Assembly: GCA_043826435.1 (NCBI GenBank)
Contig: JBDRQF010000011.1
Coordinates: 7,025-71,024 of the forward strand
Length of the DNA: 64,000 nucleotides
From: Elusimicrobiota bacterium
GTDB taxonomy: Bacteria > Elusimicrobiota > Endomicrobiia > CG1-02-37-114 > JAHJSO01
Direction of reading: 5' to 3'
Every line of letters begins with the position of its first letter. The first letter of the stretch is position 1. The notes under the pieces were generated by a model, which was not told the origin of the DNA, did no database searches, and saw nothing but the letters and a program-made list of their open reading frames with translations. Below are positions 15,234-61,191 of the stretch, one piece after another. The position numbers and the translations under genes are program-made.

Positions 15234-17273
15234 TTACCCGGTCCTGTACAGGTAAACGTCATTTTTGTTAAATTCAACTTCAAGATTTTTTATGAGGTTT
15301 TCCCAGTTCTTTTTACCGCGCGGGGTAAAATTAAGAATGCCGTACGGAGCTAACCGCCCTGCTTCATTTTTGTTATACAGGAGGTGCGTAATTTTCGCAC
15401 CCCTGATTTTTGCAAGCATATCAGCATGGTTTTTTGAATCGTTCGCAAGTTTGGCGAAGGGGTCGGGTGCATATACGTTCGTAGCGATGTAGTCCCTTTT
15501 GCAGTAAAACCCGCGTTGCTCGCCTATGAAATAAATTTTGTCATTTACCGGGAGGTTCCTGTTAATGTAGTCAAAGGCGGGGTACGGGGAATATTTCAGT
15601 TTTTTTGCCAGGTATTCCCCCCGGGTTTCTATCCCCAGCGCCACCCAGAACGGGTCAATGATTTTCTGGATATTGAAATACAGGGAAAAATTTGAAACCA
15701 GCAATAAAACGACAAGGGAGTGGACGAATATTTTAATAAACGTCCCGCCCTCTTTCCGTATGGCGGAAATTGTGTACCCGGAAATCACCGCCAGTACAGG
15801 CAGTAAAGGATAGAGGAACCTCAGGACGGGTTTTGCAGAAAACCACACAATGAAATGCAGAAAGACATAACCTAACAGCAATAAGACCTCTTTCCTTTTT
15901 TCTTTCAGCAGCAGCACGGCGGGCACCGTCACAAAATATATGACCCAGCCGAAATCGCCAAGAACGTCAATCCCGCCGCCATATTTCTGGGGTGTTGAGA
16001 TAATATTCCATGGCAGTTGGAATAATTCAAGCAGGATGTTGCTTTTAAATCCGTACTCTGTCAGGACTGCAAAATAATTTCTGGCGCTTACCTGCGGCCA
16101 CGGGATATTTTTAAAACCGAGGACGTTGTATAAAAAAGGGAACACAGGATTGCCGACATTGATTATGTTCTTAATAGCCCACGGGAGAAAGAACATAACT
16201 GCGATGGAATTCATAACGAGTATCTTCTTAACTGATGCGAATGAAAGTTTTTTGTCTTTCAGCAGTATTATAAAGAGGATAACCGATATTGCGGCGGGGG
16301 TAATGACTCCCGTATATTTTGTACCCATGGCGAGCCCGGAAAAAGCGCCGGCAAGATATAAGAACCCGTCGGATCGGGATGCGGCGTAAATTGAAACGCT
16401 GAATACGGACATAAACGTAAAAAATGCAAGCCCGCCCTCAACGTAACTGCTGCCCGCAAGCAGCATGAAAGACGTTGTGGTTGAAAGCAGCAGGGCAGAG
16501 ACCAGCCCGGCAGCCGTCCCGTTAGCCATCCTGCCGGGCATTTCGTCAAGAGCCCCGCGGTTGAAGAAACGCCTGCAGAAACAGAAAACGGCGAGCAGCG
16601 AGAATATGCCGAAAGCAAAGGAGAAGAGGTTGGGCAACGTCTCCGTGCCGGTAAAAAGGGCGAGTGTATATAGCATCTCCATGTTTTGCGGAAAATGCGA
16701 GTAGATATTAAACAATGGGGAAAATATTTTGCCCTCCATTATGTACATTCCGGGCAGGGCAAGGTGATATACGAGCGAATCGTAATATGTCGGCGGGGCG
16801 AAACACGTCACGGCAACAAGCCCGGCGCTGATCAGGATAAAAAAAAGCACGGCGGCATGCAGGGCATCAATTTTCGGCATTTTTACTGCGGACAATTCCC
16901 TGAAAAGCGAAAGTATATCACGGTGCAAAAATGCAAACGCAGATAAAACCGCAACCCATATTATTGTTGTATGGTAAAGGCCGGCGACCCCCAGGATGAA
17001 CATAACGGCGATGACTGCGCCGGTACCGGCGCCGAATTCAAAGATGTTCTTTTCAAGCGCGCTCGCGAACCGGATTTCTGTTTTCGCGCTTATAGCCCGT
17101 ATAACCGCCCTCCCTGCTGCCATGCACAGCCCGACGAAAATAAGGAGCGCGGCAATGTCTTTCAGGATGATAGTAATGCCGGCCAGCGGGTAAGCGAGAA
17201 AATACCCAGCCGTAATCAGCACGGCAATCAAACAATAAAAAATCAGATATGCTTTGGAGAAAATAGTTTGCAT
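15234..17273 (-). CDS. Large polytopic membrane protein, GT-C-like (PMT_2/ArnT-type) glycosyltransferase candidate
   Basis: 679 aa with more than 12 predicted TM segments. Has an acidic first-loop motif ([12 protein letters not shown]) and a hydrophilic C-terminal domain. Sits next to a DPM-synthase-like GT2. Confidence 0.5.
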
Positions 17274-17983
17274 TTTATAATACCGCTTTTGTGGAACAGG
17301 TATTTCATTATTGTGAATAACGTTTCAACCCCGTATTTTGAACTCCGGATAAAATTTATTGACGACGCCTCTGCAAAATATTTTGCAGGCACAGGTACGT
17401 CCCCTATGCGGAACCCGAAATATGCCGCCTCTATCAGGAACTGCTGGTCAAATACGAAATCGTTAGAATTGTTTTCCCACGGTACCGTATCCAGCACCTT
17501 CCTTGAATAAGCCCTGAGCCCGGAGTGCCACTCACCCAGGTTTTGTCCTAAAATCAGGTTTTCAAGGATGGTAAGGAACCTGTTTGACAGGTATTTATAC
17601 AGGGGCATGCCGTTGCTTATGGCTTCCTTCCTTGTCCTTATGCGGTTACCGAGGACGAAATCACATATATCCTCTTTAATGAAAGCGGTCATATGCGAGA
17701 TTATCTTCGGGTCGTACTGGTAGTCGGGATGAATCATTACAATTAGGTCTGCTCCCGATTTAAGGGCCTCCCTGTAACAGGTCTTTTGGTTGGCGCCATA
17801 ACCCATGTTCTTTTCGTGTGTGATTGTCCTCAGCCCGAGTTTTTTTGCAATCTCCACGGTCCCGTCAGTTGAGCAGTCGTCAACAAGCAGTATTTCATCC
17901 GCAGTGCCCGGGGGAATTTCCCGCAGGGTCATTTCAAGCGTCTTTTCGGCATTGTAGGCAGGCATCACTATTATTGTTTTCAT
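17243..17983 (-). CDS. GT2 polyprenyl-phosphate glycosyltransferase (dolichol-P-mannose synthase/GtrB-like)
   Basis: 246 aa with [13 protein letters not shown]...[11 protein letters not shown]...NMGYG and a short C-terminal tail, typical of DPM1/GtrB-type synthases. Confidence 0.8.
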
Positions 17984-19104
17984 ACGAGGGCTCCCCTGTA
18001 AATATTCTCCGTTTCCTTGACCATCTTTTCCATGTTAAAAAATTTCCTGACTTTTTCCCGGGCATTGTTTCCCATCTTTTTCGCTGCCTCAGTATTTTCA
18101 ATAAGCCATATTATCTTCTCCGAAAGTTCTTTTGGGCTGGCCGGACGGACTATTAACCCGTTGAGCCCGTCGTCAATAATCTCCCGGACGCCGCCAGTGT
18201 CCGTTGAAATTACAGGTCTGCCCTGTGACATCGCCTCAAGCAGGACGTTCGGAGTGCCCTCCCACAGCGACGGCAGGACGAATATGTCGGACGATGAAAT
18301 TATCCGGACGGACTCGTCAGCCGGCTGAAAGCCCGTGAATATCACTTTATCTAGTATTTTCATTTTGAGCGCCTGCGCTTCAAGTTGTCTTTTCTGCGGC
18401 CCGTCACCGGTTATGACGAACAAGACGTTCTTGAATTTTGAAAGTACGGAGGGGATTGCAGAAATAAAATGTTCCATCCCCTTCTGTTCGTGCAGGCGGC
18501 CGGCCGTGCAGACCATAATGTCTCCGTCCGCAATTCCCAATTGCGACCTCACTGCTTCCCTTGCGCCGGGTTGCTGCACCGTTTGCTCAACTCCGTTATA
18601 CAGGACAACGAGTTTGTCGGCCGGCATCCCCCCTTTGACGAGGAAAGATTTGAGCGCCATTGAGTTCACTATGATTTTTCTGCACATGCCCGACGTCAGC
18701 CGTTCAACCGGGGCCTGCCATCTTTTCTGTTTCTCCATCACCCTTATGGAAGAAATGACGGGAACGCCCCCTGCCAGCAGTGCCGACAGTCGCCCCAGTA
18801 TATTCGCCTGGAAAAGAAAGGTATGGACTATGCCTATTTTTTCCCGCCTGATAAAATTCGCGAGCATGATGACAGATGCGACAGCCATAACCGGGAAGGC
18901 AATTATACCATATTTATACATCTCCAGGCAATAGACCTTTATGCCCCGCGCTCTGAGTTTTCCTGCATACTCGCCGCATTTTTTTATTGAGTAAACGAAC
19001 GGATTGAAATCCTTGTTTAACCGCGTGGCGGTCTCATACAGCATTTTTTCCGTGCCGCCCATGTTTAGGTCGGTTATTAAAAACAGGATATTTGTTCCGG
19101 CCAT
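17980..19104 (-). CDS. Glycosyltransferase family 4
   Basis: 374 aa GT-B with a C-terminal [18 protein letters not shown] motif. Confidence 0.8.
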
Positions 19105-20864
19105 TAGAATCCCCTTTTAAATATCTTGACTCCCACATTTTCACTCGGGACGAACGCCGCCGGGAAACGTATTCCGAGAAATCTTTCAACCCCGGGCCAT
19201 GAAATTATTTCGCTGTAAATTTTGCTGAATTGTTCAATGTTTTCAATGTCGTTATATATTTCCGGCACGATTATATATTCCGGGTAGGTGTAACCCCTGC
19301 TGTCCTGCCATGTTTCTTTTTCAAGCGGTACGTTTACAAGTTTGTATTTCAGGAAGTTAAAAGCAGGCATCGTGCCGGGCAGCGCCCATCCGGTCGGGAT
19401 GCCCACGCGGGAATTTCCGGGTATATTTTCGTTTATCCACTCGCCGGCGGCGGTAAAATTGCCGTGAATGACAAATAGGTTGTTCGCGTAGTGGAGAGAT
19501 CTCGCCAGCATAAAAAAAACAACTATTGCCGCGTAAAGCAGGACGCCGGTTTTTAACGCCGGCCTGTTTAATACCTTGAGAAAATGGATTATTGCAGCCG
19601 AAAGACATATTGCTATAACCGGATACCCTATTGACCACACGCCCTGGTGTCTTAAAAAAATTGCATTTGACGCAAAAAAGATGAGCCCGAATATGGAAAT
19701 GATTTTGCCCGCGGGGTTATTGCCGTAGAGCAAAACGGACATGCCCGCCGCAAAAAGCGGCAGGACGGTCCAGTGGTCGCCCCATGTGAAAATTCTGTGA
19801 ATAAATTTAAAGGTTTCAGAAGCATTAAAAATCCCGTAGCCGCTGTATATCTTCTGGTGGAGGATAAATCTCAGGAAACGTTCGGGGTGCAGGAGTAAAA
19901 AGTAATTTGTTGAAAGGAACGCAAGAAAGAAGAAAAACACCCCGAACCACAGTCCCCTGCTCCTGAATGAAAACCTTTTTTCCTTTATGAAGTGGGCGAT
20001 AAAAATTATTAAAATAAAAGACAGGTTGGTTATCAGGGCGCCGGCTGATAGCCCGAGAAAAACCCCTCCCAGCGCATAATATTTTGTCCCGGGAGCGGTA
20101 AATATTTTTAGAATAAAATACAGGCCGGCAAGCAACAGGAGCATTGAGAGAGCATGCGGTTTGGACAGGTGGCTGTGGATTGATACAAGCGGCGAAATCG
20201 CAAGGAACAGGCATGCCAGTGCCGGGTTTGCCACGCCGTTAAAAAATTTTGCGACCACTATGTATAACAATACTACGCTTAAAACGGAAAACAGGGCGCC
20301 GGCCCCACGCACGATAGTATAAATTCTTGTTGTCTCTTCGGGATGAAGGAAATAGTATCCCGTGTCTTTCGTCAGGGATATTATGCCGGCAAGTTTCGCC
20401 GCCACCAGTGACGAAGCCACCGTATAGTAATAAAACCCGCCGTATATGTAGTTCTTCGGGTCAAGGTCAAGTTTTTTAGGGTTCATAGAGGCAAGAGGGA
20501 AAATGGCGTGGGCTTCATCGGAGAGATTTACGTTTATGAAATACGCCCTTGAAAAATCCAGGACAACTTCTTTTGGAATGATGCCAAACGGTTTTGACTT
20601 TTCCGAATGCCCCCATGTATCCAGCATTGATTGTTCTATTTGTTTTAGTTTAACCTTTCCCTTTTCTTCAAATATCTTTTCCCTTTTGGAATAGTAGGCA
20701 TCCCTCAGGGCGATCATCCGGGGGACGTGTCCCTGCAGTTCTTCTTTTGAAGAAAACACCAGGAGGTTCCTGCGCCAGTTGGGAGTTCCCCATTGGATAT
20801 TCCCGAACTGTAAAAATGCAGACAGGGCGGTTAGTGCGGCAATGATAAAAATCTTATTTTTCAT
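19104..20864 (-). CDS. Membrane protein, GT-C-like candidate with N-terminal extracytoplasmic extension
   Basis: Signal/TM at the N-terminus, a ~160-aa hydrophilic region, then at least 9 TM helices. Carries HPEETTRIY and LSDEAH acidic motifs. Confidence 0.45.
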   Translation of the reverse strand: MKNKIFIIAALTALSAFLQFGNIQWGTPNWRRNLLVFSSKEELQGHVPRMIALRDAYYSKREKIFEEKGKVKLKQIEQSMLDTWGHSEKSKPFGIIPKEVVLDFSRAYFINVNLSDEAHAIFPLASMNPKKLDLDPKNYIYGGFYYYTVASSLVAAKLAGIISLTKDTGYYFLHPEETTRIYTIVRGAGALFSVLSVVLLYIVVAKFFNGVANPALACLFLAISPLVSIHSHLSKPHALSMLLLLAGLYFILKIFTAPGTKYYALGGVFLGLSAGALITNLSFILIIFIAHFIKEKRFSFRSRGLWFGVFFFFLAFLSTNYFLLLHPERFLRFILHQKIYSGYGIFNASETFKFIHRIFTWGDHWTVLPLFAAGMSVLLYGNNPAGKIISIFGLIFFASNAIFLRHQGVWSIGYPVIAICLSAAIIHFLKVLNRPALKTGVLLYAAIVVFFMLARSLHYANNLFVIHGNFTAAGEWINENIPGNSRVGIPTGWALPGTMPAFNFLKYKLVNVPLEKETWQDSRGYTYPEYIIVPEIYNDIENIEQFSKIYSEIISWPGVERFLGIRFPAAFVPSENVGVKIFKRGF

Positions 20865-21558
20865 TTTTTTGACAGACACACAAAAGCGACATTCCTGCGG
20901 GCGGCGTAATTATTTTTTCAAACTTTGCAATGAACGGCACAAACTTGTCAAATATCAACGGCTGCAGGATTGAGAATTTTTTTCTTTTCAGCAGCCGGCC
21001 GTTTAAGTACCATCCGAATATGCCGGGAAAGTTGCTGTAATTTATTTTCTTAATTTCAAAACCGGCGTTCTTTACCTTGTCGGAAAGGCCATTTTTGTCG
21101 TAGCGCCTGCAATGAGACAGAAAACGGTCCATCGTGCCGTACAGGGATGACATAGCGGGGACAAAGAGTATAAGTTTTCCCCCCGGGTCAAGGATGTCGT
21201 AAATATTTTTGAGCGACTGAACGTCGTTTTCAACGTGCTCAAGGACGTTGATGCAGACGATGGTGTCAAATTTTTCCGGGAATTTTTGATAGATATATTT
21301 GTCTGAAATATCGGCGCAAATAAAATTTATCGCCTGCCAGTCAATTTTCATGTGCCGGATGTAGGTATCTTCCCTGTCAAGGCAGGTCAGGTTTGTTATG
21401 TCTTTTAAATAACCGGTAATGTTCCCTGTGCCGCAGCCGACCTCAAGGGTCCTTTTGCCTACGTGTGGAAGGATCATATCAAAAATCCACTTGTTGTAAT
21501 TGTGTGCGAGTGCAAACGTTTTTAACACGTTTGATGCATAATCATAATTCATAGACAT
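20854..21558 (-). CDS. Class I SAM-dependent methyltransferase
   Basis: TLEVGCGTGNITGYL (motif I) and DTIVCINVLEHVEND (motif II/post II). Start moved to the internal MSMNYDY to remove a 128-nt overlap. Confidence 0.8.
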   Translation of the reverse strand: MSMNYDYASNVLKTFALAHNYNKWIFDMILPHVGKRTLEVGCGTGNITGYLKDITNLTCLDREDTYIRHMKIDWQAINFICADISDKYIYQKFPEKFDTIVCINVLEHVENDVQSLKNIYDILDPGGKLILFVPAMSSLYGTMDRFLSHCRRYDKNGLSDKVKNAGFEIKKINYSNFPGIFGWYLNGRLLKRKKFSILQPLIFDKFVPFIAKFEKIITPPAGMSLLCVCQKNEK

Positions 21559-26316: not shown

Positions 26317-26320
26317 TGGT

Positions 26321-27811: not shown

Positions 27812-27826
27812 TTATTTATCCGCCGT

Positions 27827-28378: not shown

Positions 28379-28390
28379 GTTTTTTGCTCT

Positions 28391-51083: not shown

Positions 51084-51088
51084 AATTT

Positions 51089-53070: not shown

Positions 53071-53975
53071 CGTTTAACCGTCCTCAGAATTTCTTCTGCC
53101 CGGTGGTCATAGGTGTGTTTTAAAACAACTTCTCTATGTCCTGTCAGAGCAATCTCCTCTCGTTCTGTTTCGTGTTTCAGGTAATAGTCAATTTTTTCCA
53201 ACAGGTCATTCCCATTATCATATAAAACCAGATGTTTTTTATCTTGGAAAAGTTCTTCCAGTCCTGCTTCCAGTTTTAACCGGTCAGTGATAAGTAAACT
53301 TCCACAAGAAAGCGCTTCGAAAACACGCATATTCAAATCACCCCTTATACTTTTATTGAAAACTATCTTTGCTTGACTATATATTTTAGCCATATCTTCA
53401 CCGAATATTCCTGGAAATACTTGGATATTAAATTTCTGACCAATCAATTTTAACAATGTAACTCTCTCTGGATAAACCATAGGATTGGTGTTACCTACAA
53501 ATACAACATCATAAATTTTGGGCAATTCATATTTTCTATGTATTTCGTGGTCACATGCAACTGGCAACCATTGACTACTATTCCCAAATTTGCACATATA
53601 GTTTTTATGGCAGGAGAAAACATAAGAAAAATCGTTTTTTAAATAGGTGTGAAATTTTATTTTATCTGGTTCATGGGTATCTAATGACCATAATATCGCA
53701 GGGATACTAAGTTTGTTGAATCCTATTAGATGATATTGGCCAGCGGAATCAACTTCAACAATAATGTCAAACGATTTTTTCATTTTTTTTATCACCGATT
53801 GAACATAAACAGGAAGACCTTTAGGAATAAAAAATGGTAGATGGTTGTATAAATTAGTCCAGTATGGCGTTTTACCCAAATCAAAACTTTCCACAAAATG
53901 TTTTTTTCTTAATGCTTTTTCTAAATACATTCCAGTTGTCCAGGGAATTTTATTATATGCCAGAAATATGTTCAT
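53067..53975 (-). CDS. CgeB-like / GT-B C-terminal-domain glycosyltransferase candidate
   Basis: 302 aa. The C-terminal region (VFVGN...ERV..L...G..VFPG..., FEALSCGSLLITD) resembles the CgeB/GT1 C-terminal domain. Confidence 0.45.
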   Translation of the reverse strand: MNIFLAYNKIPWTTGMYLEKALRKKHFVESFDLGKTPYWTNLYNHLPFFIPKGLPVYVQSVIKKMKKSFDIIVEVDSAGQYHLIGFNKLSIPAILWSLDTHEPDKIKFHTYLKNDFSYVFSCHKNYMCKFGNSSQWLPVACDHEIHRKYELPKIYDVVFVGNTNPMVYPERVTLLKLIGQKFNIQVFPGIFGEDMAKIYSQAKIVFNKSIRGDLNMRVFEALSCGSLLITDRLKLEAGLEELFQDKKHLVLYDNGNDLLEKIDYYLKHETEREEIALTGHREVVLKHTYDHRAEEILRTVKR

Positions 53976-55543
53976 TTTTTTATTAAATCTGCTCTTTGTT
54001 TACAGTTTTGGTATTCAACAATTTCCCTGATTTTGTCTTCAACACATTCATATCTTAATTTTGTATCCGATAAAACTTCAGCCAAAAAAAGTTTATTTTT
54101 TTCTGCAAGTTTCAAGTAATTATGCAAGGTTAAACTTCTTAGTTGTCTATGAAATTCTGTATGCAATCTTTCTAAATCTAAAATACTAAAACTTTCAGTT
54201 CCAATCAGTGAGGTGCCAGATATGAGTGACCTATAATTTTCGTTTTCAAGTGAAACTTGCAGATAATTTTTTTCTTTACATATTTGATATAACTTTGTTC
54301 CAACATATGGCATAGCAATATGAATATAAGGATAAACACCATATTTTTCAAGCATCTCTAAAGTAAAATCTATAGTTTGTTTAATATTGTCAATGGTTTC
54401 TCCAGGAAATCCAAAAACATAGAATGCTCGTAGGTCTATACCTAAATCTTGACACCATTGAGCACACTGAATAACTTTTTTCAAATCCAGTCGTTTGTGT
54501 ATTATTTTATCAAGTACACCTTGATTGCCTGATTCAACTCCTATAATAAGATATGTACATTTAGATTTTTTTATTTTCTTCAAAATTTCTAAACTAAGAC
54601 CGTCGGCTCGCAATCCATTTGGTGTATCCCAGGTAATCCCTGAGTTAAGATGAATTATGCCGTCAACTATTTTCTCAAATCTTTTAATGTCAATATTGAT
54701 AGTGTCATCCTCAAAGTGTATGTGTTTTACGTCGTACTCTTCGGTAACAAATTTGATATAATTTAAGACATACTTTGCAGAATGAGGTCTCCATTTTCTG
54801 CCCATATGTAAATGCACAGAACAAAAAATACAATTATAAGGACAACCTCGACTTGTAATCATTGGAATACATCTTTCCGAACCAGGATAATTATATCTGC
54901 CTCTTATTTCAAATCCAAGTTCTTGTGCTTTGAAATATTTCTCCAACCGGATGAGATGATATGCAGGATAAGGTAAATCGTCTAAGTTTGAAATTGGTTC
55001 ACGGATTCCGTTATTTATGATTTTACCGTCCATACTACGATAAGTAATTCCTTTAATTTTTTGCAAAGATTTTTTACCATTATAGGCATCAATTATATCT
55101 AATATAACATATTCTCCTTCTCGCATAACAACAATATCAATAGCGTTTGATAACTTCAAAAAAGATTCCGGGCAAACAGAAGCATGTGGTCCACCAACTA
55201 TAGTTAGGATATTTTTATTGGCTGATTTCACAACTTCTGCTACTCTTACAGCATTAAATATTTGTGCACTAAATTGATTGGTAATGCCAACAACATCGGG
55301 GTTTTTATGTTGAATAACTTTTTTTAATTCAGTTATCCAATGTTTCTCTACAAATTCTTTATTTGCGTATGTATTTAATAATTTATGGTCAGCAAAATCT
55401 ACTCTTGCATCAAAAACTTCTACTTGATAACCATTTTTTTCCAACACACCGGCTATGTAAAGAATCCCTAACGGTAAATCCAATTGAAATCCTCGTAAAT
55501 TTTCACCATAACTTGAAGGCGGTCTGACAAGAAGTATTTTCTT
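53972..55543 (-). CDS. B12-binding radical SAM protein (copy 3)
   Basis: MKKILLVRPP...PLGILYIAGVL cobalamin-domain N-terminus, ...GGPHAS... and SRGCPYNCIFCSVH. Start is likely the internal MKKILLV. Confidence 0.85.
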   Translation of the reverse strand, partial: KKILLVRPPSSYGENLRGFQLDLPLGILYIAGVLEKNGYQVEVFDARVDFADHKLLNTYANKEFVEKHWITELKKVIQHKNPDVVGITNQFSAQIFNAVRVAEVVKSANKNILTIVGGPHASVCPESFLKLSNAIDIVVMREGEYVILDIIDAYNGKKSLQKIKGITYRSMDGKIINNGIREPISNLDDLPYPAYHLIRLEKYFKAQELGFEIRGRYNYPGSERCIPMITSRGCPYNCIFCSVHLHMGRKWRPHSAKYVLNYIKFVTEEYDVKHIHFEDDTINIDIKRFEKIVDGIIHLNSGITWDTPNGLRADGLSLEILKKIKKSKCTYLIIGVESGNQGVLDKIIHKRLDLKKVIQCAQWCQDLGIDLRAFYVFGFPGETIDNIKQTIDFTLEMLEKYGVYPYIHIAMPYVGTKLYQICKEKNYLQVSLENENYRSLISGTSLIGTESFSILDLERLHTEFHRQLRSLTLHNYLKLAEKNKLFLAEVLSDTKLRYECVEDKIREIVEYQNCKQRADLIKK

Positions 55544-55605
55544 CATATATCCATTTATCTTTTTTCGCAAAAAATTACCTCGTTAATCTATTTTGTCAGG
55601 GTGGT

Positions 55606-56358
55606 TTAATCCTGATCACAACCTTGTTTAGAAGCAACTGTAATAAAAACACTTCCGTACATGAAAGAAATTGCTCGTTTATCAATTAAAGCAATAAACC
55701 TTTTTACAAAATCCTTAATTTTATTACCAGTAAGAGGAATTTTAGGAACTAATTTGCAAAATTCTACTTTAAGCCCACTTTCAGTAAGAATTCCTTTCAT
55801 CTTTTCCTCATCAAACGATGCTAAATGTTCTGAAGGAGGAAAAACAGCATAACAATCCGGACAGACAACTTTTTGAATATTTTCTTTATAGGGAACAGTA
55901 ATTATAACTTTCCCCAACGGCTTTAGAACTCTTTTTATTTCTTTAAGCCCTTTTTCAAGAGTGTCCGGCAAAAGATGTTCTAATACCTCAGTCACAAACA
56001 CATAATCAAAAAAACATGTCACAAGCGGCAAATTTGTTATACTCCCCTCTTTAAGAATAATATTTTTATTTAAAGAACTAAATTTTTCTTTTAGACTTTT
56101 TATATTTTGGCGAGAAACATCACATCCATAGACTTCAAATCCTATATTATAAAGTTCATCCATAAGTGTCCCTATTCCACATCCTATATCAAGGGCCTTT
56201 CCAGGCAACCTAAAAAACTTTTTTACATTTTTAATAACACATTTATAAAAATCTGCTGGCAAAAACATACCTTCAGAGAGTTCCGGCAATGTTTCATACA
56301 TTTCCCATAAACTTTTTATTTTTTCTTCGGCCCATTCTACTTCGTGAATTTTTTTCAT
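55606..56358 (-). CDS. Class I SAM-dependent methyltransferase
   Basis: ALDIGCGIGTLMDEL (motif I) and DYVFVTEVLEHL. C-terminal CPDC suggests a small Zn-ribbon-like insertion. Confidence 0.8.
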   Translation of the reverse strand: MKKIHEVEWAEEKIKSLWEMYETLPELSEGMFLPADFYKCVIKNVKKFFRLPGKALDIGCGIGTLMDELYNIGFEVYGCDVSRQNIKSLKEKFSSLNKNIILKEGSITNLPLVTCFFDYVFVTEVLEHLLPDTLEKGLKEIKRVLKPLGKVIITVPYKENIQKVVCPDCYAVFPPSEHLASFDEEKMKGILTESGLKVEFCKLVPKIPLTGNKIKDFVKRFIALIDKRAISFMYGSVFITVASKQGCDQD

Positions 56359-56385
56359 TTACCGGAGGCCCCCTTAACTATCTTT

Positions 56386-56526
56386 TTAAAACTTTATGAG
56401 ATGCCTGTTTTCAAGGACGGCTGCGAGATATAACAGCCCGAGCGGAGGCAGGTAAGAGCCGACTTTTGTAAGCCCACCGTACCTCTCTTCCCCTAACATA
56501 GGCGGAAAAACCAGAAGTATTTTCAT
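56386..56526 (-). pseudogene. Remnant N-terminal fragment (46 aa) of a B12-binding radical SAM gene
   Basis: Minus-strand translation MKILLVFPPMLGEERYGGLTKVGSYLPPLGLLYLAAVLENRHLIKF* matches the conserved N-terminus of the B12-rSAM paralogs (MKKILLVRPP...PLGILYIAGVL). The fragment is GC-richer than its flanks. Confidence 0.6.
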
Positions 56527-56530
56527 GGCG

Positions 56531-57541
56531 TTATTTGTTTTTGAAGTAAGATTTATACCAGGCGATTGTTTTTTTGAGACCTTCTTTTAATGAATATTTT
56601 GCCTTCCAGCCCAGCGCCCTCCTTGCTTTTTCAGATGACAGGTATTGTGCATGTATTTCTGTAAATGGCTTGTCTTTGCCAAGTATTCTTGGCCTGAGTG
56701 TTGACCTGCGATGGAGAGAAATCAGCATTTTAACCAGGTCTAATGCCGTTATTGGTGTTTCACAACTGAAGTTGAATGCATCGCCCCTGACTTCCGGTTT
56801 TTTGACAACTTTTTCCGCCAGGGTTAAATATGCCGAGACAGCATCTTCAATATAAAAATAGTCCCGCACAGGAGTTCCGTCAGAGCGGATGATTGGCGCC
56901 TCATTGTGAATTAAAGAACGGATAGTGCCGGGGATTATTCTTGACCAGTGAAAATCGCCGGGTCCATATAGATTGCCGCACCTGGTTATCGCAATAGGCA
57001 GGTTAAAGGCGTGAAAGTAAGCTTTTGCAAGTGTTTCGGCACATACCTTTGAAGCATCGTATGGATAGAACCCCACCAGGAGATAGTCCTCTTTATATGG
57101 AAGTTTTTTGTGTTCCCCGTACGCCTTATCACTGGAAGCAATAACAACCGATTCAATAGTCCTGCATTCCCGTGCGGATTCCAGGACACACCATGTTCCT
57201 TTTATGTTTGTTTCAAATGTATTTAAGGGAAAGTTTTTTGCAAACGACTCAACTGCCGTAGCGGCCAGATGGAAACATACCTGAATTTCATATTCATTTA
57301 AAACTCTTTTAATAATCGGGTGGTTGGTAATTGAACCCGGAACAATTGATATTTTTTTGTCATAGCTCCCCAGGCAGAGTAGTGAAACAGGAATATAATC
57401 ATTGCTGATCCCTACAATATTTGCTCCTTTTTTGAGGAGATATATTATAATATTTGATGCCAGAAATCCGTAGCAGCCGGTTACGAGGACATTTTTTCCC
57501 CGCCAGAAGTTTTTGTTGGCTTTCATTTCATTTACCTCCAT
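56531..57541 (-). CDS. NAD-dependent sugar 4,6-dehydratase-like SDR (CDP-glucose 4,6-dehydratase-like)
   Basis: NFWRGKNVLVTGCYGFLASN resembles the RfbG N-terminus (FW.GK.V.VTG.TGF). YDASK catalytic motif. 336 aa. Confidence 0.75.
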   Translation of the reverse strand: MEVNEMKANKNFWRGKNVLVTGCYGFLASNIIIYLLKKGANIVGISNDYIPVSLLCLGSYDKKISIVPGSITNHPIIKRVLNEYEIQVCFHLAATAVESFAKNFPLNTFETNIKGTWCVLESARECRTIESVVIASSDKAYGEHKKLPYKEDYLLVGFYPYDASKVCAETLAKAYFHAFNLPIAITRCGNLYGPGDFHWSRIIPGTIRSLIHNEAPIIRSDGTPVRDYFYIEDAVSAYLTLAEKVVKKPEVRGDAFNFSCETPITALDLVKMLISLHRRSTLRPRILGKDKPFTEIHAQYLSSEKARRALGWKAKYSLKEGLKKTIAWYKSYFKNK

Positions 57542-58229
57542 AAAATTTCCACCGCAGTATATTTTTCAGCATCTGAAAACTTGCAGAAAGTTTTATGTGT
57601 GAATTTCCTTTTTCCCTTTTTTGAAAACTGAGGGGAACCTCTGACATTTTGGCTCCGAGAGATGAGGATTTTATAATAAACTCAGAATCAATAAACCAGT
57701 CCTTTGACACAGGAGATATTTTTTCATAAAGAGACCTGGTAAAAATTTTTGGGTTGCTGCCTATGTCTATCGACGGATTGGGGAAGAAAAACTGAAATAG
57801 TATATTAAATATTTTTGAATTTATCTTTCGGAGAAATCCATCCTCTCGGGTTATCCTTTTACCCTGGGCAAAATCAAGCCCTTCCTCTTTTATTTTCTTA
57901 AATACCCTGACTACATCTTCGGGTTTTATCTGGCCGTCTCCTGCCATGTAGCCAACATATTTTCCAGTGGCAGATTTTAGTCCCTGTATTACTCCCCAGC
58001 CATAGCCCTGGTTTATTTCAACGGTTACAACTTTTATTTGCGGATATTTGCCTGCTAATTTTTTCAGGAGTTCGGGTGTTCTGTCGTAAGAGCCATTGTT
58101 GACCGCCACGATTTCATAATGGATGCTATGTTTTGTGAATTCATTTGAGAGGTCTCCGCAGACCTTTTCCACATTTTCTTCTTCGTTGTAGAAAGGAATA
58201 ACTATAGACAAATCAACCGAAGGGATCAT
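57528..58229 (-). CDS. GT2 polyprenyl-phosphate glycosyltransferase (DPM synthase/GtrB-like)
   Basis: LSIVIPFYNEEENV...VAVNNGSYDRT...INQGYGWG. 233 aa. Confidence 0.8.
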   Translation of the reverse strand: MIPSVDLSIVIPFYNEEENVEKVCGDLSNEFTKHSIHYEIVAVNNGSYDRTPELLKKLAGKYPQIKVVTVEINQGYGWGVIQGLKSATGKYVGYMAGDGQIKPEDVVRVFKKIKEEGLDFAQGKRITREDGFLRKINSKIFNILFQFFFPNPSIDIGSNPKIFTRSLYEKISPVSKDWFIDSEFIIKSSSLGAKMSEVPLSFQKREKGNSHIKLSASFQMLKNILRWKFYGGK

Positions 58230-59035
58230 TTTGATTTTTCTCGCCGGGAAATTTTTGAAATATTTAACCTTATTCGGACAAGGTCTCTGAGAATTTTTAA
58301 GAATTCCCTGCGGGGATTGAGCCGTGTGTCAAAATCGCATGACCATTTTAAGGGAAATTCTTTTATGGTGTATCCGAGTCGTTGGGCTATTGACAGGACT
58401 TCAACATCAAAAATGAAGCCGTTTATTTTTTGCTGACTGAGAATTTTTTGGGCTACTTCTTTTTTGAAAAATTTGAAACCGCATTGTGTATCCACTATCC
58501 CCTTAATGTTAACGATTGCTCTTGTAATGGAAGCGAATATCCTGCCGGAAATCGTTCTATAGAATGGTTGCTTTATAACTATTTCCGACTCGCTTAACAG
58601 CCGTGAGCCGATTGCAATATCATATCCGTTTTCTAAAAAATTTATGCCCTTTTCTGTTTCATGAAAAGGAACGCAATATCCAGCGTCAACAAAAAGAATA
58701 TATTTGCCGGTTGCCTGTAAAACCCCAGTTTTCACTGCATAACCTTTTCCTTTGTTTTCAGGATAACTTACTATTTTTAAATTTTTGTGGCGTTCTTTGA
58801 TTTTTGTTAATATATCAAGTGTTTTGTCTTTGCTCCCGTCGTTAACGATTATTATTTCAAAATTATATGTTTGTTTATTGAAATACTCGTATAGCAGTTT
58901 TATGTCTTTCTCTATTTTGTTTTCCTCGTTGTAAGACGGGACTACAACCGAAAGATAAATATCATGCTCTGGTTTCATATAATCGGGCATTTCACGATAA
59001 TCCTCTCTGTAACCCCTACACTGAAAGGGATACAT
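58226..59035 (-). CDS. GT2 polyprenyl-phosphate glycosyltransferase (DPM synthase-like), tandem paralog
   Basis: LSVVVPSYNEENKI...IIIVNDGSKDKT...NKGKGYAV. 269 aa. Confidence 0.8.
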   Translation of the reverse strand: MYPFQCRGYREDYREMPDYMKPEHDIYLSVVVPSYNEENKIEKDIKLLYEYFNKQTYNFEIIIVNDGSKDKTLDILTKIKERHKNLKIVSYPENKGKGYAVKTGVLQATGKYILFVDAGYCVPFHETEKGINFLENGYDIAIGSRLLSESEIVIKQPFYRTISGRIFASITRAIVNIKGIVDTQCGFKFFKKEVAQKILSQQKINGFIFDVEVLSIAQRLGYTIKEFPLKWSCDFDTRLNPRREFLKILRDLVRIRLNISKISRREKSK

Positions 59036-59056
59036 TTTTCAATTTTTAGTTCTTGA

Positions 59057-59563
59057 TTAATCAATTCCATGTATCTCTCTTTTGTTCTTATGTATTTGCC
59101 TATATCGGTTGCAATCAAAATCCGCCCGAAGATGTTGTTTCTTTGATTGAACTATGGGTTCAGCGATTACAACAAGTTTTTTTGTAACCCTGTTTGCTTC
59201 TTTTATTGCTTTAATAAAGGTATCATCGTCAACATGGTGAAGTGTTTCAAGTATAACTGTTTTGTCAAACGATTTATCAGGGAAATTAAGTTTTGAGATA
59301 TCCATAGCCAGGAAATTTTTTTTATATTTTTCTCTTGCATACTCTATAAATTTTCTATTAATATCAATTCCTGTGTAATTTTGAGTAACCCCCGAAAATC
59401 TTCCTGTGCCGCAGCCCATATCTAATAATGTTTCTGTCTCTGTCAGTTGAAGTTCCTCTTTTATAATTTTAATATACCTGTTGTAATAGCCGGGTTCAAA
59501 CAGCAGGGTTACAAGTTTTCTGACAAAGTTGCGGATATATGCGTTGTCCAGTAATTTTCCCAT
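59057..59563 (-). CDS. Small class I SAM-dependent methyltransferase (C-terminus possibly truncated)
   Basis: LLDMGCGTGRFSG (motif I) and KTVILETLHHVDDD (motif II). Only 168 aa and ends soon after motif III. Confidence 0.6.
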   Translation of the reverse strand: MGKLLDNAYIRNFVRKLVTLLFEPGYYNRYIKIIKEELQLTETETLLDMGCGTGRFSGVTQNYTGIDINRKFIEYAREKYKKNFLAMDISKLNFPDKSFDKTVILETLHHVDDDTFIKAIKEANRVTKKLVVIAEPIVQSKKQHLRADFDCNRYRQIHKNKREIHGID

Positions 59564-59571
59564 GGGTTACC

Positions 59572-61191
59572 CTAAATTTTGCTCAATGTCTTGCTTATGT
59601 CATATATTTTTATTTCGTCATTTTCAAATATCTGCACATCGGGGCTGTTATGTTCTTCCCAGTAGAGCGGTTTGATTTTCCCCGTTCCGAGCGGCACTCT
59701 AAAAACCGGTTCGGATTCGCGGACGATTTCAGTTATCAGGGAATTCAGCGGTATCCTGTTGTACGTATTAACGTGTAAATATTTGACATACAGCATATAC
59801 CGTACATTTTGTTTCCTGTAGAGGGCAAGTAATTCGTCTTTTGATTTTATGTAACTCACATCTATTGTGTTTTCCTTACCGGCAAAAAATTCAGAATTGG
59901 GATAACAAAAACTGATATGTTTCGGGCAGCCGCTTTTAATGATGTATTCAACAGCGGACTTATAGCCGGATTTTATTCCGAGTATCTTAAGGGACTTGTA
60001 AATCCCGGGTGCAGTTATGACAACGAGGGCTGCTGCCAGTTTTACAAGAAAGCTGACCGAAGGGAAAAAACTCAGCAATACCATGACGCCCGTGGACGAT
60101 ATTATGGACATTGAATAGATGGAAGACGAAATAAGGCGGGGCAGGGCGTAGGCATAGGTACCTGTACCGTCGTCCATTGCCAGCGCCTTTTCACGCGATA
60201 TGTCGGGCCTCCCGCTCCAGAATAAAAGAGGGATAAAAAACTGACTGAGCAGGACACCTCCCTCAAAGGATATGTTTTTTAACAGGAGGACGGCGCCCAG
60301 AAAGACAAGCAGGATGGTGAGCGGGCCGTCGAACGCATAGATGGTTTTGAGGTACATCCTTAAAAACGGGAGGCGGGCCGTCGGTAAAACGAAATTCCCC
60401 GACCTAAAAAAGAGTTGTCTGAAGAAGGTCGGGTAAGGGTAACCGATTTCCTTTAGGATGACGAAGAATTCCTCAATGATAATCAGGGGCAATGCCATTG
60501 CCGTGAAGAGCAGTATAAACCGCGAAACCACAATGTCTGCGGGGAATTTAAATAACACCGCTGCCACGATTTCCCACCCGGCAAAGAAAACAGGCAGGTA
60601 GAATTGCCGCGTGTTACAACAGAATGCAGCGCCGACGAAAATGCCGGCGATTATCAGGTAAATGAAATTACCGGTTTTACAACTCATTAAGTAAAGATAG
60701 GTCGCCCATACATAAAATGCCCCGCATGTTATTTCTGCATGTACCGACCTTGAATACACAAGGTGATAACCTGAAACCGTTAGGATTAAGGCGGAGATAA
60801 TGGCGAACAAAGGGCCGAAAATGATTTTACCGGTAAAATATACGCCAAGGATTCCGATTATGCCGAAGAAAGCGTTGGCATATAGGGCAGAGTATTCCAC
60901 ATTGCGGACGACTTTTGAAGTGAGGTAATAAATGAATATGTTAAGCGGGTTCGTGTCAAACAAATAACGCCCGCGGAAACCGGCAGCCGCCTGCCCGAGG
61001 CCAATCTTCTTTTTTGAAAGCAACGGCCTGATGTTCTTTTTGATAAACGTCATTAGGTCGTCAAGGAACGCCACTTCAAGCATCCGGAGCCCGTCGTCAA
61101 AATGAAGGAGCCCCCTCTGTTTGAGAGCATAAAACCTTAGGAAGGCGCCGAGTAGCAGAACAAAAATAACCAGAATCCACGTTAATGCCAT
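59572..61191 (-). CDS. Polytopic membrane protein, GT-C-like glycosyltransferase candidate
   Basis: 539 aa with at least 11 TM helices. Acidic N-terminal loop (HFDDGLRMLEVAFLDD) and a C-terminal hydrophilic domain. Confidence 0.5.
   Translation of the reverse strand: MALTWILVIFVLLLGAFLRFYALKQRGLLHFDDGLRMLEVAFLDDLMTFIKKNIRPLLSKKKIGLGQAAAGFRGRYLFDTNPLNIFIYYLTSKVVRNVEYSALYANAFFGIIGILGVYFTGKIIFGPLFAIISALILTVSGYHLVYSRSVHAEITCGAFYVWATYLYLMSCKTGNFIYLIIAGIFVGAAFCCNTRQFYLPVFFAGWEIVAAVLFKFPADIVVSRFILLFTAMALPLIIIEEFFVILKEIGYPYPTFFRQLFFRSGNFVLPTARLPFLRMYLKTIYAFDGPLTILLVFLGAVLLLKNISFEGGVLLSQFFIPLLFWSGRPDISREKALAMDDGTGTYAYALPRLISSSIYSMSIISSTGVMVLLSFFPSVSFLVKLAAALVVITAPGIYKSLKILGIKSGYKSAVEYIIKSGCPKHISFCYPNSEFFAGKENTIDVSYIKSKDELLALYRKQNVRYMLYVKYLHVNTYNRIPLNSLITEIVRESEPVFRVPLGTGKIKPLYWEEHNSPDVQIFENDEIKIYDISKTLSKI

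Follow-up and report, generated by a model that had tools for sequence, protein, structure and literature searches.

A module-rich array of predicted GT-C glycosyltransferases and polyprenyl-phosphate GT2s in a probable cell-envelope glycan locus of the Elusimicrobiota

Results

A co-directional array of glycan genes

The window, by which we mean the whole 64,000-nucleotide stretch of DNA that was analyzed, carries an array of co-directional glycan genes, the last ORF of which extends past the window end at 64000. It begins at 11634, outside the 15234 of the preliminary description, and takes in a WecA-like gene (14143). All 14 ORFs on which that description was built, eight for polytopic proteins and six for short GT2s, are present on the minus strand at the coordinates given there.

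11634..64000, minus strand: glycan array of 45 called, co-directional genes (Pfam)
11634, 17980, 48711, 49971 and 53067, minus strand: cytoplasmic GT4/GT1-type genes (Pfam)
14143..15159, minus strand: WecA/MraY-family polyprenyl-phosphate HexNAc-1-phosphate transferase (Glycos_transf_4, 111.8 bits)
15234..17273, minus strand: predicted GT-C 1, 679 aa (PMT_2, 32.0 bits)
17243..17983, minus strand: short GT2 a, 246 aa (Glycos_transf_2, 78.9 bits)
19104..20879, minus strand: predicted GT-C 2, 591 aa (PMT_2, 31.3 bits)
21542..23245, minus strand: predicted GT-C 3, 567 aa (PMT_2, 47.7 bits; PMT, 29.9 bits)
23223..24782, minus strand: predicted GT-C 4, 519 aa, divergent (sub-threshold Wzy_C; profile evidence)
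24766..26316, minus strand: predicted GT-C 5, 516 aa (PMT_2, borderline at 26.2 bits)
31650..32429, minus strand: short GT2 b, 259 aa, ArnC-like (Glycos_transf_2; NCBIfam; PDB)
37737..39440, minus strand: predicted GT-C 6, 567 aa (PMT_2, 53.4 bits; PMT, 44.3 bits)
39430..40545, minus strand: DegT aminotransferase (Pfam), PseC-like (NCBIfam)
40598..41602, minus strand: GFO/IDH/MocA oxidoreductase (Pfam), UDP-GlcNAc 3-dehydrogenase-like (NCBIfam, 165 bits, below cut-off)
41846..42550, minus strand: short GT2 c, 234 aa (Glycos_transf_2; PDB ArnC over residues 9-211)
42566..43219, minus strand: acetyltransferase, NeuD/PglB/VioB type (NCBIfam)
43257..44516, minus strand: predicted GT-C 7, 419 aa (PMT_2, 49.5 bits)
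45961..46650, minus strand: short GT2 d, 229 aa, AglJ/DPM synthase-like (Glycos_transf_2, 135 bits; AglJ, 117 bits)
51089, minus strand: conventional GT2 (Pfam)
57528..58229, minus strand: short GT2 e, 233 aa (PDB PfDPMS, E = 1e-18 over residues 4-229)
58226..59035, minus strand: short GT2 f, 269 aa, adjacent to e (PDB GtrB, E = 1.6e-17; PfDPMS, E = 4e-17)
59572..61191, minus strand: predicted GT-C 8, 539 aa (PMT_2, 42.4 bits)
61260..62681, minus strand: Wzx-like MOP-family flippase (Polysacc_synt, 42.5 bits; about 12-15 hydrophobic segments)

Pfam also identified AsnB, an HldE-like gene, TPP-dependent E1 alpha and beta genes, five B12-radical SAM genes and one SPASM radical SAM gene, five SAM methyltransferases, three DegT genes and two epimerase/dehydratase genes in the array. 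The product of 14143, likely the initiating enzyme, scored 115 bits against the WecA model in NCBIfam, under the cut-off of that model, and an ortholog (52%) occupies the equivalent place in the genome of a distant member of the Elusimicrobia (L010). The Wzx-like protein is the sole flippase candidate found: GtrA-, ArnE/F- and MATE-type flippases were detected neither in the window by Pfam nor in the neighbor tables of the related loci. The window likewise yielded no Wzy, Wzz, WaaL or oligosaccharyltransferase. The base composition is mosaic, with a per-gene GC3 of 0.20-0.61 across the array, and more than one pathway may therefore be joined in the locus. GT-C 5 lies in a low-GC segment (GC3 0.38) and GT2 b (GC3 0.23) in a low-GC cassette together with the E1 alpha/beta genes.

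Eight polytopic proteins of the GT-C type

Profile and fold evidence identifies all eight polytopic proteins as GT-C glycosyltransferases, in agreement with the preliminary description. The PMT_2 gathering score in Pfam (26.1 bits) is passed by seven of them, two of which (21542 and 37737) also match PMT. The eighth, GT-C 4, matched only Wzy_C, at 27.8 bits and below the cut-off of 31.7, and was resolved by hhalign and through its relatives. Only 3 homologs were found at word-index sensitivity and 56 remote relatives by HMMER, PMT_2 was present in 45 of the 52 that were scanned, and the family aligns end to end with that of GT-C 6 (hhalign 99.7%, E = 5e-27, 454 columns). The profile of the 37737 family was also aligned with residues 214-507 of GT-C 1 (98.4%), and hhalign gave 96.8% over residues 101-458 of GT-C 5. 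On the PMT_2 matches, the profile alignments and the structural matches, an identity as transporters or as Wzy/WaaL was rejected.

The best-characterized of the eight is GT-C 6, the only one with a usable AF2 model (pLDDT 93.5, pTM 0.93; the model of GT-C 4 has a pLDDT of 44). The top 46 Foldseek matches of this model in the PDB are all GT-C enzymes, among them STT3/AglB/PglB, ALG12/ALG9/ALG3, Pmt4, Pmt1-Pmt2, DPY19, AftA/AftB/AftD, Emb, PimE and ArnT (5ezm, E = 9e-6, at a sequence identity of about 13%).

The acidic motifs quoted for the first loop (RPHEDEM of GT-C 5, YTTEEY of GT-C 3 and YNPDEPLSYY) are indeed located immediately past TM1 and are in part aligned across the GT-Cs. In the YNPDEP motif of the 37737 family, as represented by 45 sequences, E43 is invariant and D42 nearly so, and this pair is aligned with E37-E38 of GT-C 3 and with D121-E122 of GT-C 2, which has a 78-aa insertion in the first loop. 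GT-C 4 has ENE (residues 34-36), followed by HKTPG, in place of the DEG of its family, GT-C 7 has HWDD, and GT-C 8 has HFDD after TM1. We presume that the conserved Asp/Glu pair past TM1 serves as the catalytic site. In the fusion proteins described below, exactly one hydrophobic segment lies between the nucleotide-sugar-using GT2 domain and the NPDE motif, and the motif should therefore face outward, as the preliminary description had proposed.

A crude hydropathy scan gave 9-13 hydrophobic segments per protein, with 13 in GT-C 1, which has an additional N-terminal block of TM helices. The 11 or more TM helices that had been ascribed to the proteins are not borne out in every case. Likewise, the C-terminal soluble domain was recovered in GT-C 1 (146 aa), GT-C 6 (169 aa) and GT-C 8 (142 aa) but not in GT-C 7, the tail of which is 27 aa. 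The three tandem genes 21542, 23223 and 24766 overlap, by 23 and 17 bp. For GT-C 2, the start may be GTG at 20879 (591 aa) or ATG at 20864 (586 aa).

Six short GT2s

All six short GT2s (229-269 aa) match Glycos_transf_2 in Pfam, and the hydropathy scan gave no convincing TM helix in any of them. The top NCBIfam match of each is a polyprenyl-phosphate glycosyltransferase (PpgS, ArnC, AglJ or PgfS), and further models of this kind rank high; the scores are all far under the equivalog cut-offs, and no donor sugar can therefore be assigned. In the PDB, the matches cover about 200 aa, which is the whole catalytic domain, of ArnC, PfDPMS or GtrB, none of which was matched at E <= 1e-5 by the conventional GT2 51089, taken as a control. 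These proteins are probably of the polyprenyl-phosphate glycosyltransferase type, loading sugars onto a lipid carrier, which accords with the DPM1/GtrB type named earlier.

The best NCBIfam matches of GT2 a are PpgS (top), a haloarchaeal dolichyl-phosphate hexose transferase and AglJ, and its PDB matches are ArnC and PfDPMS. GT2 b matches ArnC (E = 6.6e-12 over residues 10-220) and PfDPMS (E = 2e-10), and GT2 d matches PfDPMS (5mlz) with E = 3.6e-21 over residues 3-208. The top PDB match of GT2 c by score is a short stretch, 77 aa, of chondroitin synthase. PgfS is a top NCBIfam match for GT2 e and GT2 f.

Fusions and conserved gene order

The strongest new evidence for the proposed coupling of GT2s to GT-Cs comes from natural fusions. 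At least 10 orthologs of GT-C 6 in other Elusimicrobiota are GT2::GT-C proteins of about 790 aa, the GT2 halves of which align over their full length with GT2s of the window, with 47% identity to GT2 c (fusion protein P0042) and, in most of them, 35-39% to GT2 f. Further support is provided by the adjacency of GT2 and GT-C genes in relatives. The order GT2 c, GFO, GT-C 6 is kept in two related loci (L090 and L097), and GT2 c stands beside GT-C 6 in two more (L099 and L100), and the fused GT2 of L109 and L110 occupies the place of 41846, behind the genes for the GFO, acetyltransferase and DegT proteins. A 74% ortholog of GT2 a adjoins the GT-C 2 ortholog in L100, and orthologs of GT2 d (63-65%) adjoin those of GT-C 7, which directly follow them in L100, L104, L105 and L109.

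We infer that GT2 c is the donor synthase for GT-C 6, and this is the best-supported pair of the locus. The DegT aminotransferase, the GFO oxidoreductase and the acetyltransferase, which are syntenic in L090, L097, L109 and L110, would be the nucleotide-sugar tailoring set of the GT-C 6 module, and these neighbors suggest a 2,3-diacetamido-hexose as a possible cargo. With eight GT-Cs for six GT2s, the pairing would not be one-to-one.

Old divergence and related loci

The view of the array as a paralog expansion of unusual degree did not stand. BLAST finds no similarity in most pairs of GT-Cs, the exception being 19104, 21542 and 37737, which share 22-26% identity (25% over 417 aa for GT-C 2 and GT-C 6). 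Judged by their sequences, the GT-Cs are anciently diverged and not recent paralogs. At least five of the GT-Cs and three of the GT2s have orthologs in related loci, in many cases beside the same neighbors: those of GT-C 2 (31-34%) in L100, L109, L110, L113 and L116, those of GT-C 3 (38-48%) in six loci, that of GT-C 5 (53%) in L090 and those of GT-C 7 (43-53%) in seven. Such orthologous modules were found again in 16 related loci, each 12-22 kb long and some of them redundant, with a median of 4 GT-Cs per locus, or about 4 per 20 kb, versus 8 in 46 kb here. The GT-C density is ordinary for this lineage. The gene for GT-C 1 is present in identical form in 4 other assemblies.

Discussion

We consider it fairly likely that the window holds the greater part of a locus, over 52 kb in length, for a cell-envelope glycan that is made in three stages. 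In the cytoplasm, the WecA-like enzyme would initiate a glycan on polyprenyl phosphate, to be lengthened by the cytoplasmic GT4 and GT2 enzymes and flipped by the Wzx-like protein. In parallel, the six soluble GT2s, of the DPM1/PpgS type, may each load polyprenyl phosphate with one sugar taken from a nucleotide sugar, and these sugars would often be tailored by the aminotransferases, the 3-dehydrogenase-like oxidoreductase and the acetyltransferase, and also by the B12-radical SAM proteins, the SAM methyltransferases and the TPP-dependent E1. Once flipped, the lipid-linked sugars would be transferred by the eight GT-Cs at the outer face of the inner membrane, with the conserved Asp/Glu pair after TM1 as the presumed catalytic site. 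The glycan, or some other acceptor in the envelope, would receive them. Each GT-C may add a different residue, as suggested in the preliminary description.

We also considered the possibility, which we regard as unlikely, that no polysaccharide is decorated and that the GT-Cs are protein O-glycosyltransferases, moving single sugars from polyprenyl-phosphate-sugars to Ser/Thr residues of secreted, S-layer or pilin proteins, much like the actinobacterial and eukaryotic PMTs or streptococcal PgfM1. All eight GT-Cs are members of the PMT_2/PMT families, the structural matches include Pmt4 and Pmt1-Pmt2, the PgfS matched by GT2 e and GT2 f is the GT2 of streptococcal protein glycosylation, and the lack of Wzy and WaaL would fit. 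However, the WecA-like, Wzx-like and several cytoplasmic GT4/GT2 neighbors point to a lipid-linked oligo- or polysaccharide, and ArnT, ALG and Aft/Emb, which act on lipids and glycans, match equally well as the PMTs. Furthermore, the window contains no candidate gene for a Ser/Thr-rich acceptor, and the MIR domain of the PMTs is absent.

Less likely again is that some modules modify lipid A or the LPS core in the manner of ArnT/LgmB, where an ArnC-like GT2 loads undecaprenyl phosphate with an amino sugar made in the cytoplasm and the GT-C passes this sugar to phosphates of lipid A or to sugars of the core. For GT2 a, b and c, ArnC is the best match or close to it, ArnT matches the GT-C 6 model, and this module carries an ArnB-like DegT aminotransferase and an acyltransferase, but neither an ArnA-type decarboxylase/formyltransferase nor an ArnD deformylase or ArnE/F flippase accompanies them, and eight GT-Cs far exceed what lipid A decoration needs. 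Some sources label homologs as "ArnT family" or "4-amino-4-deoxy-L-arabinose transferase-like," but these names are automatic family labels. It is very improbable that the short GT2s are ordinary cytoplasmic extenders of a polyprenyl-diphosphate-linked glycan, near the GT-Cs by chance while the donors come from elsewhere: the sub-cut-off NCBIfam scores, the missing TM helices of GtrB, ArnC and PfDPMS and the chondroitin synthase match of GT2 c could be read in this way, but they are outweighed by the fusions with GT2 halves homologous over their full length, the repeated adjacency across loci, the full-domain matches that the control lacks and the existence of TM-less polyprenyl-phosphate glycosyltransferases such as human DPM1 and mycobacterial PpgS.

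The three-stage mechanism that we favor has parallels in several known systems. The TM-less GT2s resemble human DPM1, PfDPMS is the best PDB match of GT2 d and GT2 e, and the PMT matches of GT-C 3 and GT-C 6, with the ALG12, ALG9, ALG3 and Pmt4 structural matches, recall the PMT and ALG lumenal mannosyltransferases that go with eukaryotic DPM1 and archaeal DPM synthase. The bacterial setting, with its WecA-like and Wzx-like genes, and the absence of DPM2/DPM3 homologs and MIR domains distinguish the locus from the DPM/PMT systems. In mycobacteria, PpgS (Rv3631), a TM-less GT2 of roughly 226 aa, has Rv3779 as its GT-C partner, and arabinogalactan and LAM are assembled by numerous GT-Cs (Emb, Aft, PimE, Mpt), an envelope glycan being built sugar by sugar as we propose here. 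The mycobacterial GT-Cs belong to families GT53, GT85, GT87 and GT89 and their genes are scattered in the genome, whereas those described here are all PMT_2-type and clustered. As in ArnC/ArnT and Bordetella LgmA/LgmB, an amino sugar modified by an aminotransferase and an acyltransferase is the probable cargo; the low identity to ArnT and the absence of ArnA, ArnD and ArnE/F equivalents set the locus apart from the Arn pathway.

A GT2 synthase, a flippase and a GT-C make up an established route of periplasmic glycosylation (Kelly et al., 2024, PMC11127046), and the locus is an unusually module-rich case of this known kind of system, in which one route of extracytoplasmic sugar addition would be used many times over, with the same layout in relatives. 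As in the three-component systems, namely GtrA/GtrB/GtrC of Shigella and Salmonella, CsbB/GtcA/YfhO of Firmicutes and the pentofuranose system (Kelly et al., 2024), a GT2 expected to make a polyprenyl-phosphate monosaccharide stands here beside a GT-C that would use it outside the cytoplasm, in a glycan locus. Those systems have one module, whereas this array would have six to eight, with synthases that have no TM helices and with no GtrA- or MATE-type flippase in the window, and in relatives of this locus the synthase is fused to the GT-C.

Identity of the polytopic membrane proteins

The preliminary description had assigned eight polytopic proteins, named here by the start coordinates of their minus-strand genes (15234, 19104, 21542, 23223, 24766, 37737, 43257 and 59572), to the GT-C glycosyltransferases rather than to transporters, Wzy polymerases or WaaL ligases, and this assignment is upheld by our results. 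Membership of the superfamily (GT39/GT83-like in CAZy terms) was judged by the Pfam PMT_2 gathering cut-off of 26.1 bits, which was passed by seven of the eight proteins (26.2-53.4 bits). One of these, 24766, passed narrowly (26.2 versus 26.1 bits), and hhalign comparisons with the 37737-family profile gave 96.8% for 24766 and 98.4% for 15234, which confirms both assignments. In the 15234-17273 protein, the GT-C core is preceded by about four additional TM helices at the N-terminus, and the precomputed annotation of an identical protein from other assemblies lists DUF8201 (PF26626) with a weak PMT_2 match; DUF8201 was not reported for 15234 by the Pfam copy searched in this analysis.

The remaining protein, 23223-24782, failed the PMT_2 cut-off directly and gave a Wzy_C match of 27.8 bits versus a cut-off of 31.7 bits. 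It has only three close homologues, and an AlphaFold model built from the resulting 4-sequence alignment was unusable (pLDDT 44). A HMMER search against 1.84 billion representative sequences identified 56 relatives, and PMT_2 was matched by 45 of the 52 scanned members of the family (23223 included), while Wzy_C was matched by none of the 51 relatives in the Pfam scan. The 23223-family profile aligned with the 37737-family profile at 99.7% probability (E = 5e-27) over 454 columns. The family profile and the PMT_2 matches of the relatives thus place all eight proteins among the GT-Cs. A role for 23223 as a Wzy or WaaL protein was rejected, since the Wzy_C match is sub-threshold, no relative matches Wzy_C and the family mostly matches PMT_2. 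In Elusimicrobia RIFOXYA2_FULL_39_19, a homologue of 23223 with 50% identity adjoins pyrimidine genes, a context that is uninformative.

The GT-C fold was tested on 37737 alone, for which a 45-sequence alignment yielded a model with a pLDDT of 93.5 and a pTM of 0.93. Every one of the top 46 Foldseek matches to this model in the PDB is a GT-C enzyme, including STT3/AglB/PglB, ALG12/ALG9/ALG3, Pmt4, ArnT, DPY19, AftA/AftB/AftD, Emb and PimE, and no transporter, Wzy or WaaL protein is found among these 46. A phmmer search of 37737 against PDB sequences gave nothing meaningful, and the fold search was needed to recognize these similarities.

The proteins had also been credited with 11 or more TM helices and a C-terminal soluble domain. 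The first figure holds in part: a hydropathy scan, which is a crude measure, gave 9-13 segments, and at least 11 are not clear in every protein. The second feature does not apply to 43257, which is without such a domain.

An acidic motif follows the first TM helix. In the 45-sequence alignment of the 37737 family, E43 is invariant and D42 nearly so, and these residues align with E37/E38 of 21542 and D121/E122 of 19104. The 23223 family has the consensus DEGxFLxxAxxILxGxxPYxDxxDHKPPG after TM1, and in a profile alignment with the 37737 family, residues ENE 34-36 of 23223 fall at the DE position. By inspection, the motifs are HEDEM in 24766, HWDD in 43257 and HFDD in 59572; only D165 was found in this way in 15234, for which the assignment is uncertain.

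Short GT2s resembling polyprenyl-phosphate glycosyltransferases

Six short GT2s (17243, 31650, 41846, 45961, 57528 and 58226; 229-269 aa) all match Glycos_transf_2, and none contains a convincing TM segment. The top-scoring NCBIfam match of each is a polyprenyl-phosphate glycosyltransferase (PpgS, ArnC, AglJ or PgfS), and a haloarchaeal dolichyl-P hexose transferase is also among the high-ranking matches. For all six, these matches are far under the equivalog cut-offs, which places them in the broad family rather than in a named ortholog group, so that no donor sugar can be named.

Among PDB sequences, each short GT2 matches ArnC, the Pyrococcus DPM synthase and/or GtrB over about 140-225 residues, and the matches stop about where the TM helices of these proteins start. 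The conventional GT2 51089 (291 aa), which served as a control, had rhamnosyltransferase and PgaC-type enzymes as its best matches and, at E <= 1e-5, matched none of the PDB sequences of ArnC, DPMS or GtrB. Likewise, a custom HMM gave 236-283 bits for the six short GT2s, which were in its building set, versus 57 bits for the control. Based on the family matches and the negative control, we classify the six as DPM1/PpgS-like synthases without TM helices, which agrees with the DPM1/GtrB type proposed previously; the C-terminal TM helices of the GtrB/ArnC/archaeal DPMS subtype are absent from all six, which in this respect are like human DPM1 and PpgS.

Natural fusions of GT2 and GT-C domains

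At least 10 homologues of 37737 in Endomicrobiia/Elusimicrobiota and in metagenomes are proteins of 755-804 aa with both Glycos_transf_2 and PMT_2/PMT domains.

Fusion proteins, GT-C half orthologous to 37737: P0021-P0024, P0026-P0028, P0030, P0038, P0042
Loci with fusions in other genomes or metagenomes: L091, L104, L105, L109, L110, L113

In these proteins, an N-terminal GT2 domain of the polyprenyl-P type leads into one hydrophobic segment, after which comes the motif GLPSKNxALTTYNPDEP, as in the 37737 family. Since the GT2 domain uses a nucleotide sugar and must therefore be cytoplasmic, the one hydrophobic segment between it and the NPDE motif argues that the DE loop faces outward. With the alignments and the inspected motifs, this backs the earlier placement of the acidic motif in the first extracytoplasmic loop, 15234 being the uncertain case.

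Over their full length, the GT2 halves of the fusions show homology to the short GT2s of the window (P0042 with 47% identity to 41846, most others with 35-39% identity to 58226). At loci L109 and L110, the fusion comes after the GFO/IDH/MocA oxidoreductase (GFO), acetyltransferase and DegT genes, which is the position of 41846 in the window. This Rosetta-stone pattern supports a predicted functional coupling of synthase and GT-C, and the suggested coupling thereby gains backing that is independent of the window. The fusions may also lend indirect support to the use of polyprenyl-phosphate-linked donors by the GT-Cs, and in the relatives it is the fusion to the GT-C that supplies the GT2 with its membrane anchor. 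A limited literature search on GT2/GT-C fusions or PMT-type glycosyltransferases in Elusimicrobia returned nothing relevant, which is not proof of novelty.

Organization of the locus and conservation in relatives

Every relevant ORF of at least 150 aa is located on the minus strand. A housekeeping block is followed by a glycan array of 45 co-directional genes that runs unbroken from 11634 to the end of the window, with gaps that are mostly a few bases or overlaps (the largest being 423, 243, 172 and 152 bp). The final ORF, 62681-63994, reads on beyond position 64000, and the locus is therefore longer than the window.

Housekeeping and anchor genes
744-11533, minus strand: housekeeping block with acyl-CoA dehydrogenase, RNase III, fabF/G/D/H, plsX, yceD, acetate kinase, ndk and isocitrate/isopropylmalate dehydrogenase
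11634-15159 (6468-10004 in L010, a distant Elusimicrobia genome): anchor block with WecA-like, FAD/amine-oxidase-like and GT4 genes beside the dehydrogenase, 39-52% identity

The 37737 protein is 100% identical to the NCBI entry 'MAG: glycosyltransferase family 39 protein [Elusimicrobiota bacterium]', and five assemblies, including GCA_018830385.1, have identical housekeeping and proximal cluster genes. A scan of genome contigs with the dehydrogenase gave an uncultured Elusimicrobia as the best match (70% identity) and no genome of the same species; what this best-matching genome shares with the window is limited to the anchor genes (WecA-like, FAD oxidoreductase, GT4 and dehydrogenase). In L010, the gene content differs upstream of the anchor block, which serves as a fixed, conserved point next to genes that vary. 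Within the block, the ORF 12842-14311 (489 aa) overlaps the WecA-like gene 14143 by 169 bp, and the FAD/amine-oxidase-like protein probably starts at an internal ATG, giving 434 aa.

The GC3 values per gene range from 0.20 to 0.61 across the array, and two blocks of low GC lie near 24.8-35.6 kb and 51-59.6 kb, a mosaic which suggests that cassettes have been horizontally exchanged on top of a conserved core. The compositional breaks are sharp at 24766-35583 and 51089-59563, where GC3 drops from about 0.55 to 0.20-0.45. One break lies within the overlapping GT-C trio (0.58 in 21542, 0.49 in 23223 and 0.38 in 24766).

The GT-C set had been described as an unusual paralog expansion, an interpretation that we do not share. 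In BLAST comparisons among the eight, only 19104, 21542 and 37737 are detectably similar (22-26% identity). Recent duplication as the origin of the set is rejected because BLAST detects no similarity between most pairs and the orthologs persist across loci. By inspecting gene contexts and by searching metagenomes with the 37737 family, we compiled 16 related loci of 12-22 kb, some of them redundant. HMMs derived from the window proteins were then run on these loci. These loci encode 1-5 GT-Cs each, with a median of 4, and 1-4 short synthase-type GT2s. Best-match mapping revealed a conserved module of GT2 45961 with GT-C 43257, and a conserved order of acetyltransferase, DegT, GT2 41846, GFO and GT-C 37737. 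Further conserved modules are GT-C 21542; a methyltransferase with GT-C 19104 and GT2 17243 (up to 74% identity); and GT-C 24766 (53%). The cluster of RIFOXYA2_FULL_39_19 covers at least 36 kb, with five GT-Cs, three short GT2s and one 337-aa GT2, and it also keeps tandem small membrane proteins, an HldE-like gene, a TPP-dependent enzyme and radical SAM genes. The recurrence of the modules indicates that the pathway belongs to the lineage as a whole, the window being a rich case of it and not an expansion of its own. The multiplicity is unusual compared to textbook Gtr/Arn systems, but not within this lineage.

Proposed assembly of the glycan outside the cytoplasm

We consider it probable that a polyprenyl-diphosphate-linked glycan is built and exported, that the synthases load monosaccharides and that the GT-Cs add these outside. 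The WecA-like protein 14143, the cytoplasmic GT4 and GT2 enzymes and the Wzx-like protein 61260 would build and export the glycan, the six synthases would put tailored monosaccharides on polyprenyl phosphate, and the eight GT-Cs would add the sugars so loaded on the outward side of the inner membrane. Of the modules, the following is defined best.

37737-43219: UDP-GlcNAc 3-dehydrogenase-like GFO, DegT aminotransferase, NeuD/PglB/VioB-type acetyltransferase, GT2 41846 and GT-C 37737

This gene combination suggests that the cargo may be a 2,3-diacetamido-hexose, a prediction drawn from the gene families.

The proposed route corresponds to the three-component scheme for such additions, which was reportedly treated as established by Mann and Whitfield in 2016. 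GT-C-dependent periplasmic glycosylation has usually been regarded as one extra step, for example in serotype conversion or the modification of lipid A. A more recent study also presents the three-component periplasmic scheme as established, and describes more elaborate multi-GT-C loci in Xanthomonas and Bacillus (Kelly et al., 2024; PMC11127046). Here and in related Elusimicrobiota, the GT-C route appears to serve as the principal way of making an envelope glycan, with at least five conserved GT-C/synthase modules joined with heavy tailoring by B12-radical SAM proteins, SAM methyltransferases and a TPP-dependent enzyme.

Several observations fit the scheme poorly. The window yielded no dedicated flippase gene, and the GT-Cs outnumber the synthases (eight versus six). 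As for components of the Wzx/Wzy type, WecA-like and Wzx-like proteins are present in the window; Wzy, Wzz and WaaL were not found in the window, beyond which the locus continues, or in the neighbour tables of the relatives. The GT-Cs might instead act on protein acceptors, in the way of PMT and PgfM-type enzymes, which we regard as unlikely. That some modules modify lipid A or the core, in the manner of ArnT and LgmB, seems to us slightly less likely still. The short GT2s are very unlikely to be ordinary cytoplasmic transferases, given the natural fusions of homologous GT2 domains to GT-Cs.

Returning to polyprenyl-linked assembly with addition of sugars outside, the fusions provide a testable pairing rule of donor to transferase. 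Since no flippase gene is nearby, they also prompt one to ask by what route the lipid-linked donor reaches the other side of the membrane. No Pfam family of GtrA, ArnE/F or MATE flippases was recovered among window ORFs of at least 150 aa or in the neighbour tables of the relatives, and the Wzx-like protein is the only flippase candidate found in the window. The gene for a dedicated flippase may lie at another site of the genome. A more speculative idea, to which we give little credence at present, is that a TM-less synthase docked on its cognate GT-C, an arrangement made covalent in the fusions of roughly 790 aa, might form a self-contained unit that makes, flips and transfers the sugar without a GtrA-type flippase. 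If so, the greater part of an envelope glycan conserved in this lineage would arise by stepwise addition of single sugars outside the cytoplasm. This would resemble the assembly of mycobacterial arabinan or assembly in the ER lumen, yet in a bacterium of Gram-negative type.

The earlier interpretation is largely upheld, although it overstated both the paralog expansion and the rarity of the locus. The system is of a known kind, here in a module-rich form and from a phylum that has received little study, and the fusions and the missing flippase are the most interesting leads. For glycoengineering, it offers a compact set of divergent GT-Cs, probably with distinct specificities.

Tailoring enzymes and small membrane proteins

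The GT-C and synthase genes are interspersed with the following genes.

26321-27811, 44522-45958, 53972-55570 and 62681-64000, minus strand: B12-radical SAM proteins
30540-31643, minus strand: radical SAM/SPASM protein
20854, 51942, 55606 and 59057 (starts), minus strand: SAM methyltransferases
27827-28378 and 28391-28945, minus strand (10001-11162 in the related locus L126): tandem small membrane paralogs of 183 and 184 aa, 50% identical
32436-34447, minus strand: TPP-dependent E1 alpha/beta pair (E1_dh and Transket_pyr/Transketolase_C)
28962-30494, minus strand: HldE-like bifunctional enzyme in swapped order, nucleotidyltransferase N-terminal and PfkB kinase C-terminal

The load of cobalamin-dependent radical SAM proteins and SAM methyltransferases is unusually high, and the same families recur in related loci. 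This suggests that the sugars are extensively C-/O-methylated or otherwise radical-tailored.

In each of the small membrane paralogs, about three TM helices at the N-terminus precede a soluble C-terminal portion of some 80 aa. Neither matches any Pfam or NCBIfam family, even at E <= 10, and only 3 homologues were identified in 5.8 billion proteins. In RIFOXYA2_FULL_39_19, the tandem adjoins HldE-like, SIS, HD, B12-radical-SAM, GT2, SPASM and PMT_2 genes. The pair are candidates for anchoring the TM-less GT2s to the membrane or for serving them as components of a flippase.

The E1 alpha/beta pair is flanked by DegT/epimerase genes on one side and GT2 31650 on the other, within the cassette with the lowest GC content (GC3 0.23-0.25), and the comparable pair in RIFOXYA2_FULL_39_19 consists of Transketolase_N/E1_dh and Transket_pyr. 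Such enzymes could provide a sugar with a two-carbon branch or an acylated one. In the window itself, we saw no SIS gene. The HldE-like gene of RIFOXYA2_FULL_39_19 adjoins SIS (GmhA-like) and HD genes, and these neighbours point to an NDP-heptose-type branch.
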